A DNA stretch of 31,287 bases from an uncultured Methylococcaceae bacterium (GTDB lineage Bacteria > Pseudomonadota > Gammaproteobacteria > Methylococcales > UBA1147). The notes under the pieces are model-generated. The model was not told where the DNA came from. It saw nothing but the letters and a program-made list of their open reading frames with translations, and made no database searches. Positions 9,044 through 18,711 of this stretch are shown one piece after another. Within the stretch, counting starts at the first letter, position 1; the number at the start of each line of letters is the position of its first letter. The stretch spans positions 1 to 31,287 of the forward strand of contig CAZGQY010000026.1 in assembly GCA_964528035.1 (NCBI GenBank). Direction: 5' to 3'. The position numbers and the translations under genes are program-made.

Positions 9044-9085
9044 AAATACAGCAACTATTCAGACACCGTTTTTTAGAGGGTACAA

Positions 9086-16276: not shown

Positions 16277-18346
16277 TCATGCCTCAGAAACTTGCTGATT
16301 CTGAGGCATTTGATCCGCTCGCAGGGCATCTTCATGTATCACATCACTGGCTTTCTCACTAATCATATAGACTGCACTAACGATAAACACCCCCGGAATT
16401 TTAGGAAAAACAGAGGCATCGACGATACGCAGATTTTTAACTCCATTTACTCTGAAACGACTATCGACCACTGCATTTTGCGGGTCGTTTGTTCCCATCC
16501 TACAACTACAGGAAGCATGGTGACCCCAGGCATTGTTTTTCACAAATTCTTCTATCTGGGTATCGGTCCGAACTTCTCTACCTGGCAGTTCTTCCTCGGC
16601 GATGTACTGTTCGCTCTTCGCATTTATTCTACGCACGAACTTTAGCGCTTCCACGACTGAACTCAAATCAGTTCCAGCAGGATCATTGCCTTCATCAAAA
16701 TAGTGGAAGTTAATCGCAGGAACCGCGCGAGGATTCGCCGATTTTAGGGTAACCTCTCCCGCTGTATTGTTGGTATGCGCCTTGAGAATGGCCCAGGTAA
16801 AATGTTTGTTATCCTGCGTAGCCTTTTCAGCATAACCGGGATAATAACCAGAAAAATTCCCCGGCATACCGAATACGAAAAGATCCGGCGGTTCGTCTTC
16901 AGCGACAGACGAGGCACGTTTCAGAAACGATATGACCGCTCCGTTTGTCGTATAGAGCCCTTCACCTTCCTGCCATTCGGTATACATTGGGTCAGGTACT
17001 TCCCCTGACGATGGCGAACGGAATGTGGCATCTTCGAGGAAAGTAAAATCATGCTTCATTCTGGAAACCACACACACTTCGTAGCGATCCTGTAGATTTT
17101 TACCGACCCACGGACTATCGACTATTAGCTCGATGCCATGTTTGCCTAATTCATTTCCTGGACCCACACCGGATAACATCAGTAGCTGAGGTGTATTGAA
17201 CACCCCACCACTTAATATCACTTCGCGCCTGGCACGAACCTGCTGCAAATCATTGTCTTCACTTTCCTCATTCAGCGACCCATTGTCAGTGATCTTGGAA
17301 CGATCCGCATTATACAACCCTTTGCCCTGCCGATACTCTACGCCAACCGCAACCTCCCCATCGAAAATTACGCGCGTCACCAAAGCGTGTAACTGTACAC
17401 GAAGTACACCTGCGCACTGCCGCTCAACCTGGCGAATATATTCGCGACTGCCGACGCGCCGTCCATTATGGGTTGTCATCGGTACAACAACCAAACCCTC
17501 ACGATCAGTATTTCGCCAATCGTTAGGATCGAGCAGCCAATGTTTATTTCGTAATTGCAGTAATCGGTCTATGTAATCGGTGACTGTTTTTATTTTCGGG
17601 TTCAAGACTTCTATCGCTGCCTTAAATACACCTTTCCTCAATTGCATATCAGATCTCAGCCTGTGCCGATACTTCCACATTTTCAGCAATTTTACTCCAG
17701 GGATATCGGTATGCAGCCAACCATTAAAACCGTGACGCGACAAATTTTGATCTGCAACGTGTGAATAGTCGCAATTTTCAAGCCGCTCAAAATAGGCTCT
17801 CATCTTATCGCTGCTCCAGGAATTATCCCCCGTTACTTTGGCAATATAATCCCAATCACTATTATTTGGAGTCACCATAATCATTGCGTTATGGGCGGTA
17901 CAACCACCCAGCGTACCTGATCGTGGGTAAAATATTCCGTCCTGGGCTTCACAGAACTTCTTATCCCGACGGGATTGCTTATCATCCCCATAATGGCGTA
18001 CAAAAAAATCCCATCTGAATTGAGGATCTTCAGAGGCTTTAGTGTGAAACAGCGGCACCGAATAATTATCACTCTGATCATCACCCCCTGCTTCCATCAG
18101 CAATACAGAATAGCCCCTGGTGGCCAGGTTCGCAGCCAGCGGCCCACCACCCGCACCCGAGCCCACAACAATATAGTCGTATTCTTCCGCAAGCCCGACA
18201 GCATCGCCGTCTGCATTTAATTTATTCTCCGGCTGACCACAGATAATGCGCGAACAACCACTCAATAGCGCCAGTGTCCCAACACCGGTTCTTATACAAA
18301 ATTTTGCAAATCCCCTGCGAGTAAAGCCCGTACTATTTATCCTCAT
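16277..18346 (-). CDS. Tat-exported GMC-family FAD oxidoreductase, choline/alcohol-dehydrogenase-like.
   Basis: The 689-aa product has a twin-arginine signal 'TRRGFAKF...LLSGCS' and an FAD-binding 'VVGSGAGGGPLAANLA...LLMEAGG'. The GMC C-terminal region includes 'HHASCSCRMG'. A strong RBS (AGGAGAA) precedes the ATG. Confidence 0.85.
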   Translation of the reverse strand: MRINSTGFTRRGFAKFCIRTGVGTLALLSGCSRIICGQPENKLNADGDAVGLAEEYDYIVVGSGAGGGPLAANLATRGYSVLLMEAGGDDQSDNYSVPLFHTKASEDPQFRWDFFVRHYGDDKQSRRDKKFCEAQDGIFYPRSGTLGGCTAHNAMIMVTPNNSDWDYIAKVTGDNSWSSDKMRAYFERLENCDYSHVADQNLSRHGFNGWLHTDIPGVKLLKMWKYRHRLRSDMQLRKGVFKAAIEVLNPKIKTVTDYIDRLLQLRNKHWLLDPNDWRNTDREGLVVVPMTTHNGRRVGSREYIRQVERQCAGVLRVQLHALVTRVIFDGEVAVGVEYRQGKGLYNADRSKITDNGSLNEESEDNDLQQVRARREVILSGGVFNTPQLLMLSGVGPGNELGKHGIELIVDSPWVGKNLQDRYEVCVVSRMKHDFTFLEDATFRSPSSGEVPDPMYTEWQEGEGLYTTNGAVISFLKRASSVAEDEPPDLFVFGMPGNFSGYYPGYAEKATQDNKHFTWAILKAHTNNTAGEVTLKSANPRAVPAINFHYFDEGNDPAGTDLSSVVEALKFVRRINAKSEQYIAEEELPGREVRTDTQIEEFVKNNAWGHHASCSCRMGTNDPQNAVVDSRFRVNGVKNLRIVDASVFPKIPGVFIVSAVYMISEKASDVIHEDALRADQMPQNQQVSEA

Positions 18347-18361
18347 TTATTGTTCTCCTTT

Positions 18362-18510
18362 CGTAACTGCTCACCCCTCTATGGGTGATCTGTTCCGGAA
18401 GACGCCGTAAATACATCCTTGTAGGCTTGGATGCGGCTTCCCTGCCGCATACACTTCCTCCACAGATCACCCATAGAGGGCTGTTTCGATTAGGGGGCAA
18501 GTTGTTACCT
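18362..18510. mobile_element. MITE-like small repeat element, copy 1 (about 149 bp). It has internal 19-bp inverted repeats and a nested 7-bp hairpin, and is flanked by CTCCTTT(T)C direct repeats.
   Basis: It is about 94% identical to 26486-26632. The inverted repeat 'cccctctatgggtgatctgt' (18374-18393) pairs with 'acagatcacccatagaggg' (18462-18480). The inner hairpin is atgcggc-ttccct-gccgcat. The flanks 'ctccttttc|' and '|ctcctttc' look like a target-site duplication. Confidence 0.7.
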
Positions 18511-18711
18511 CCTTTCTTTGTATAAACAGGTCTGCCACACACCTTCACCCACTCAATGAATGATATCAAGAAAGTACAGGAATAAATATTCCGTCTTCTC
18601 CTCCTCTAAACAGAGCTCCATAAAAAGGATTTGTATATGTTAAAATTCCGCCGATATTTAGTTATTTTATAGATCAGTTTCCCCTTTACTCATAGACCAA
18701 CAGTTAGTCCT

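Follow-up and report, generated by a model that had tools for sequence, protein, structure and literature searches.

The stretch of DNA analyzed here (the window; 31,287 nt, from an uncultured Methylococcaceae bacterium) is a metagenome contig that was assembled also in ENA, Logan and JGI data. It contains two short repeats of high similarity, and these raise the question of what kind of element they represent and which enzyme dispersed them. The original prediction, made from the sequence, had taken them for a new MITE-like family. Our results support its MITE interpretation, and it is well supported that the repeats belong to a previously undescribed MITE family, i.e., to an ordinary kind of element. 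The explanation that we favor as a whole, in which the repeats are copies of a 146-bp intergenic MITE presumably mobilized by a transposase of the IS66/ISBst12 type, has in our estimation a probability of about 0.8.

The two window copies (Table 1) lie in the same orientation and are 94.5% identical over their full length, and in their pairwise alignment the similarity begins and ends abruptly; repeat detection within the window matched 18362-18496 to 26485-26619 at 96%. Both copies are flanked by perfect 8-bp direct repeats, the target-site duplications (TSDs), and the similarity ends exactly at the termini that these duplications bound. The terminal inverted repeats (TIRs) of the family (GTAACTGCTCGCCCC / GTAACTACTTGCCCC) are 15 nt long, imperfect, with 13 of the 15 positions matching, and conserved in 49 copies. 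The arm of the internal inverted repeat occurs four times in the window, against 0.01 matches expected by chance. Hence, the original prediction was right about two same-orientation repeats of about 94% identity, about their internal inverted repeat, now located with its 19-nt arms in both copies, about the perfect 7-bp hairpin in the core, and about the flanking direct repeats acting as TSDs. The boundaries that it gave to copy 1 (18362-18510) enclose a real element but overlap the left TSD by 1 nt and the right one by 2 nt, and the 19-nt inverted repeat that it emphasized, although real, does not mark the true termini, which are the 15-nt TIRs outside it. Either strand of either copy is predicted to fold at about -68 to -70 kcal/mol (z = -5.5 to -7.2 relative to shuffled sequences). 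The sole ORF overlapping the element (18333-18569, 78 aa) has no Pfam hit, a scan of copy 1 found no promoter- or terminator-like site, and Rfam at gathering thresholds returned for the whole window only one tRNA, located outside the element.

Table 1. Positions of the MITE copies and their parts in the window, together with the copy of a second MITE family
Feature	Position	Strand	Description
MITE copy 1	18363-18508	+	146 bp, GTAAC...GTTAC
MITE copy 2	26486-26630	+	145 bp; core scores 83 bits with core covariance model R1
Left TSD, copy 1	18355-18362	.	CTCCTTTC; from sequence and TSD analysis
Right TSD, copy 1	18509-18516	.	CTCCTTTC
Left TSD, copy 2	26478-26485	.	CTTTAACC
Right TSD, copy 2	26631-26638	.	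CTTTAACC
Left TIR, copy 1	18363-18377	+	GTAACTGCTCACCCC; family consensus GTAACTGCTCGCCCC
Right TIR, copy 1	18494-18508	+	GGGGCAAGTTGTTAC; reverse complement GTAACAACTTGCCCC
Internal 19-nt inverted repeat, left arm, copy 1	18375-18393	+	
Internal 19-nt inverted repeat, right arm, copy 1	18462-18480	+	
Internal 19-nt inverted repeat, arms, copy 2	26498-26516 / 26585-26603		
YPAL/RU-2-like core, copy 1	18399-18456	+	three-way junction with hairpins A and B
Hairpin A of core, copy 1	18412-18423	+	TACA-TCCT-TGTA
Hairpin B of core, copy 1	18431-18450	+	ATGCGGC-TTCCCT-GCCGCAT, 7-bp stem
Second-family MITE, degenerate, older	9051-9205 (end near 9205 approximate)	-	26-nt-arm hairpin at 9077-9179

Copies of the element are not confined to the window. 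An exact scan of JGI metagenome contigs for the 19-mer arm returned 101 stretches, nearly all from one group of sister samples, and about 95 of them are full-length or contig-end copies; about six hits (L011, L017, L032, L055, L076, and L079) were dropped as chance or coding matches. Four of these (L011, L017, L076, and L079) are unrelated metagenome contigs in which the arm 19-mer coincides by chance with the coding sequence of a conserved N-terminus (MGNLFQELKRRK...), which is a caution for copy counts based on patterns. A BLAST search, the check that the original prediction had proposed for further copies, gave 105 hits at 91 flank-distinct sites with unrelated flanks, 54 of the sites having both flanks. 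We put the number of sites in the host at roughly 70-90 or more, a range set because one-flank sites may be halves of one site; it derives from metagenome assemblies of a small set of sister samples rather than from a closed genome. The copy count is probably an underestimate, because the scan needed one exact 19-mer arm. A local segmental duplication or chance similarity, suggested by the window itself showing only two copies, can be dismissed with near certainty, since about 95 further copies have unrelated flanks and the similarity extends precisely to the ends marked by the TSDs and no further.

Identity to the consensus has a median of 95.9% (range 87-99%) in a sample that the exact-arm requirement skews towards well-preserved copies. 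The family comprises at least two subfamilies, and the long stem of most copies in the largest one contains a T·C mismatch that is not compensated. A symmetric 130-bp variant (L041:1013-1142) has the left-end sequence at both ends, is devoid of the 17-nt right-end spacer and is bounded by a perfect TSD (CTTGAAAG); forms of about 126 nt resembling this variant are seen in L099/L038, L014, L012, and L105. Moreover, two independent assemblies end inside the repeat, 46 nt upstream of the oxidoreductase gene, and the L002 and L005 contigs have terminal matches of 30-31 nt to the element. No exact match to the 19-mer arm occurs in 185,579 species-representative genomes or in IMG/VR, BLAST of the element against PLSDB plasmids and E. 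coli genomes gave no match, and a full-text literature search with terminal or arm sequences found no paper, the 10-mers giving only unrelated primers and barcodes. No close relatives of the host were found among the GTDB representative genomes; the best relatives of the 944-aa ligase/acyltransferase encoded in the window, obtained in a contig protein search, are 45-51% identical.

The copies bear the marks of transposition. The 49 unique full-length copies run from GTAAC to GTTAC over 145-146 bp. An 8-bp TSD, whose recurrence at other copies had been named as a check by the original prediction, is perfect in 32 of the 49 and deviates at no more than one position in 43, while the other lengths tested (3-7 and 9-12 bp) fit none of them. 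The targets are AT-rich and weakly palindromic, roughly WW|S-WWWWWW-S|WW with S at TSD positions 1 and 8, and they are unstructured: the reconstructed empty sites fold at -6.68 kcal/mol versus -6.41 kcal/mol for shuffles (p = 0.83). Nearly all copies (47/49) are intergenic, being located outside any ORF of 120 aa or more. No empty orthologous site was seen among the loci compared, all of which had been chosen for containing the element. The properties by which MITEs are recognized are thus found together: a size below about 300 bp, no coding capacity, TIRs, a TSD of fixed length, and many dispersed copies with unrelated flanks. REP/BIME elements are 20-40-nt palindromes with GTAG or CGTC heads and without TSD (PMC3733652); the 146-bp size, the 8-bp TSD and the GTAAC termini rule them out as candidates here. 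We propose that a DDE transposase supplied in trans would bind the terminal repeats, cut the target with an 8-bp stagger and insert the element.

A part of the element has relatives that are already known. In a permissive Rfam search it scored 29 bits with Ysr224 (RF02770; E = 5e-5), in a match that starts at its first base; the Rfam gathering score is 70 bits and is not reached by the element. The same model gave 133.9 bits for a YPAL copy on a Y. similis plasmid (L191:152-258) and 72.4 bits for a second true YPAL copy. Judged from these alignments, Ysr224 is the first 107 nt (5') of the YPAL/RU-2 MITE, and the RU-2 sequence printed in an earlier paper agrees with the Rfam Ysr224 consensus (PMC2759123). 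A survey lists Ysr224 among the most abundant annotated sRNAs (PMC9029176), an abundance that is probably explained by Ysr224 being part of a MITE. The part common to YPAL and our element is the core of about 60 nt (consensus positions 37-94), with 47 of the 59 aligned positions identical, including the stretch AAGACGCCGTAAATACATCC(A/T)TGTAGGCT; the local alignment score of the element against YPAL is 56, compared with 15.3 ± 2.2 for shuffles, and a BLAST search with the consensus aligned exactly this interval to a YPAL copy from a Yersinia phage. Outside the core, the element and YPAL do not align. YPAL-like copies were observed on conjugative plasmids of Klebsiella, Citrobacter and E. coli, as well as in the Yersinia phage vB_YpM_Tongde, and such plasmids and phage are possible routes of their horizontal spread.

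Given this homology, one could ask whether the element is simply a member of YPAL/RU-2 that moves by the YPAL mechanism, with dyad or terminator-hairpin targets and TSDs of 3-26 bp. Both are about 150-170 bp long, intergenic, non-coding and strong hairpin formers (PMC2759123, PMC2229807), and YPAL likewise has a three-way junction with two hairpins holding TCC in their loops and an internal inverted repeat around the core. However, YPAL has no true terminal inverted repeats, its targets are dyad-symmetric, and its TSDs, which vary between 3 and 26 bp, typically comprise whole terminator hairpins (PMC2229807), whereas our element has terminal inverted repeats beginning with GTAACTGCTC, a TSD fixed at 8 bp, and AT-rich targets whose empty sites fold no better than shuffled sequences. 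Accordingly different are the YPAL copies that we compared, on the Y. similis plasmid (L191) and on an E. coli plasmid (L188), both of which duplicate an entire rho-independent terminator hairpin (ACCGCCATAAAGGCGGTT, 18 bp, in L191; CAGGGGCAT(T/A)T(T/G)GCCCC in L188). Together with the Rfam score far below gathering and the lack of alignment beyond the core, these differences make membership in YPAL very improbable, and we consider the element not a YPAL member but one that shares a module with YPAL. The claim of a new family therefore stands for the multi-copy family, which was previously undescribed, but not for the central ~60 nt, which are homologous to the known YPAL/RU-2. Correia/NEMIS, ERIC/IRU and RUP resemble our element in being small, non-coding, bounded by TIRs, intergenic, multi-copy, hairpin-forming and thought to be mobilized in trans (PMC2229807), but they differ from it in their TA termini, TA duplications and transposase families (IS630 for RUP). 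No sequence similarity to them was detected, as Rfam gave nothing else and there was nothing in the E. coli genomes.

Which transposase, then, mobilizes the 146-bp MITE? Termini starting with GTAA are generally known for IS66 elements from ISfinder, and both ends of the MITE start with GTAAC and are flanked by 8-bp direct repeats. Published IS66-family terminal repeats begin with GTAAGCG and likewise give 8-bp direct repeats (PMC11946415). Within this family, ISDge4 of the ISBst12 group, bounded by the TIRs GTAACTGCTCAGCA and GTGACTACTCAGCA and flanked by an 8-bp direct repeat, encodes one transposase of 449 aa (PMC12898284). The elements of this group, like the MITE, have terminal repeats that begin with GTAACT followed by (G/A)(C/T)T and an 8-bp TSD (PMC12898284), while the MITE, unlike them, is only 146 bp long and has no transposase gene. 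Further single-ORF IS66 elements were read from plasmid records: that of Geobacillus pHTA426, whose transposase matches PF03050 at 1.9e-64, has the terminus GTAACTATTCAGCCC and the TSD AACTCGTC, that of B. thuringiensis GTAACTACTCAGCTT and AATTTATC, that of Octadecabacter GTAACTCCCAAGCACC and TTTATTTG, and that of Oceanisphaera the terminus GTAACTATTCAGCTT with a TSD that is not intact. The MITE terminus GTAACTGCTC agrees with that of ISDge4 at 10/10 positions and the other, GTAACTACT, with the B. thuringiensis element at 9/9, and 11 of 15 positions are shared with the Geobacillus terminus. Overall, the two MITE termini are the same or nearly the same as those of five single-ORF IS66 elements from four phyla, four of them with 8-bp TSDs. 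Because both the termini and the TSD length match, an ISBst12-type IS66 transposase is the most likely mobilizer, and the GTAACT(G/A)CT termini with the 8-bp TSD would point to a single-ORF transposase of this group encoded elsewhere in the host genome. None of the five sampled elements resembles the MITE in its interior or contains the core, which lends no support to an origin of the MITE from such an IS by internal deletion.

The window contains no transposase, as had been stated originally: none of its ORFs of at least 100 aa has a transposase domain. An IS66/PF03050 transposase was found neither in the window nor in about 750 kb of related contigs (780 kb in total; tblastn and a four-sequence IS66 HMM in six frames), and the element is itself non-coding, in line with a non-autonomous MITE. 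The cognate IS with matching TIRs that the original prediction suggested looking for thus did not turn up in these sequences; self-megablast of the related contigs detected no interspersed repeats longer than 300 bp, and no TIR pairs with TSD spaced 150-4000 bp apart were found there. Multi-copy IS elements are usually absent from short-read contigs.

Possibly, the MITE could have been moved by another DDE family with an 8-bp TSD, e.g., ISL3, IS256, IS6, IS1595 or ISAs1, a reading favored by the lack of an IS66-type transposase in the 780 kb of host contigs and by the fact that the IS66 assignment depends only on the length of the TSD and some 10 nt at the ends. However, the characteristic ends of the other families with 8-bp TSDs differ, starting with GG..., GAG... 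or CAGGG (ISfinder). The close agreement of GTAACTGCTC and GTAACTACT with the ends of five single-ORF IS66 elements (PMC12898284) and the canonical GTAACTATTCAGC end of a second MITE family of the host also speak against such a transposase, which we consider a distinctly unlikely mobilizer.

This second family is represented in the window by the degenerate copy listed in Table 1, whose terminus at 9051-9063 (+ strand) reads GCAACTATTCAGA, whereas the family consensus is GTAACTATTCAGC, of the IS66/ISBst12 type; its termini match GTAACTA(C/T)TCAGC. Copies were found at 13 other loci with 71-85% identity, and the two best-preserved ones have the 8-bp TSDs AATAAAAA (L022) and TTTTTATA (L077). The window copy begins 8 nt upstream of the start of a Band_7 gene (9043). 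The termini and TSDs of the second family provide independent support for a putative IS66-type transposase in the host. It also contains the same YPAL-like core (R1 at 34 bits, E = 1.6e-6, window 9088-9168).

The recurrence of the core invites the question of its role. For an alignment of six core sequences from five lineages, the three-way-junction structure pairs 92.6% of the cells, compared with 33-44% when the partners are slid; 6 of the 18 pairs change on both sides, and none of 500 shuffles reached the observed values. Both hairpin loops always hold TCC (GGA on the other strand). With R1, the covariance model of the core, every copy of the 146-bp family was retrieved, and a further match lies in a Haliea sp. 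MAG (39.5 bits, E = 9e-8). There, a single core copy (CGCCGTAAGTACATCCATGTAGGCTCG...GGCCATCCATGGCC; L173:13395-13505) lies in a 19-nt outer stem (GAAGCAACTATGG.../...CCATAGTTGCTTC); the Haliea host is a marine gammaproteobacterium unrelated to Yersinia. Core-only versions in unrelated outer stems are carried by Pantoea and Enterobacter plasmids. The chassis of the core are YPAL, which targets hairpins, in Yersinia and on enterobacterial plasmids, the bare stem-enclosed copies of Pantoea, Enterobacter and Haliea, and the two IS66-type MITE families of our host.

These data bear on the strongest alternative, namely that the copies persist because the core is a host-useful or protein-binding RNA or DNA module for which transposition is only the delivery. 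Such a module might, e.g., stabilize mRNA or act as a decoy of a regulator that binds GGA, such as CsrA, and would be compatible with the main explanation. In its favor, the core has been kept from Yersinia to Haliea and to the host studied here, its stems varying in a compensatory manner and its TCC/GGA loops staying invariant. Moreover, hairpin A reads UACAAGGAUGUA on the minus strand, resembling the CsrA SELEX consensus, which is said to be RUACARGGAUGU (attributed to Dubey et al., 2005). Upstream of start codons, the strand with the GGA loops is the sense strand in 11 cases versus 3 (p = 0.057), a weak trend that would fit such a role. However, there is no covariation within the 146-bp family (covariation term -0.04), orientation relative to the flanking genes shows no significant overall bias (9:9 in tandem gene pairs, 16:12 downstream of stop codons), and the T·C mismatch in the largest subfamily is left uncompensated. 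Furthermore, the Rfam Ysr224 transcript corresponds to the opposite (UCC-loop) strand, and horizontal transfer on plasmids and phages could equally account for the sequence conservation. On balance, we find a host-useful core unlikely as the reason for the persistence of the copies, though it is the least improbable of the alternatives. To the same low degree, the ~60-nt core, with its 5-bp closing stem and two short TCC-loop hairpins, may be a structure-constrained functional module and not neutral filler, one that may have spread across Gammaproteobacteria on three or more chassis. As one speculative form of this idea, the two A(N)GGA loops of the minus-strand RNA, spaced about 24 nt apart (UACAAGGAUGUA and GCAGGGAAGC), are a candidate dual site for a CsrA/RsmA dimer.

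Returning to the MITE as a mobile element, its insertions lie close to genes. On the minus strand, from which the GMC oxidoreductase gene is read (ATG at 18344-18346), the left TSD of copy 1 (CTCCTTTC) reads GAAAGGAG, its reverse complement and the Shine-Dalgarno sequence located 8 nt upstream of this ATG, in agreement with the early remark that copy 1 abuts the ribosome-binding site of this gene. The insertion therefore landed within the ribosome-binding site and duplicated it; the gene retains such a site, and the element now lies between the gene and the sequence further upstream. The left TSD of copy 2 lies 20 nt upstream of the start of a fitA-like antitoxin gene (26457, minus strand). 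The window encodes here a pair of a FitA-like RHH antitoxin and a PIN toxin (a fitAB-like operon, 25802-26457, minus strand), and copy 2 is positioned in the expected promoter/operator region of this operon. When co-transcribed with neighboring genes, the element would form a hairpin of about -70 kcal/mol. Such a hairpin could change the stability or translation of the mRNA, an effect reported for YPAL and for other MITEs. Most cautiously, the element can be described as selfish DNA whose hairpin is present in any transcript that crosses it.

Other parts of the window hold features in their own right. A ~1.1-kb non-coding stretch downstream of rtcB (10145-11398) contains a tRNA-Met(CAT)-like gene (9518-9592, minus strand; 63 bits, called by ARAGORN too) and a sub-threshold tmRNA-like match (9862-10083, minus strand; 30 bits, E = 4e-10), and a divergent rtcR lies at 11616-13199. 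No Ro/Rsr gene is present near rtcB/rtcR in the window, and the YrlA match is weak (20 bits). The two features may be tRNA-like RNAs tied to the Rtc RNA-repair operon. Between rtcR and the GMC oxidoreductase gene lies an 842-aa ORF (13378-15906, minus strand) without Pfam domain.

For the host, the family predicts an active or recently active transposase of the IS66 type, and its clear TIR/TSD signature ties the MITE to the little-studied single-ORF IS66 (ISBst12) group. Its usefulness lies mainly in annotation, as it accounts for contig breaks and for strong hairpins beside genes in an uncultured lineage. The central module of YPAL, an element that Rfam treats as an sRNA (Ysr224), recurs in IS66-type MITEs of distant marine Gammaproteobacteria, and this sharing makes the origin and role of the module testable. 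If the candidate CsrA site were real, MITEs with the core would scatter CsrA sites or decoys across transcripts.
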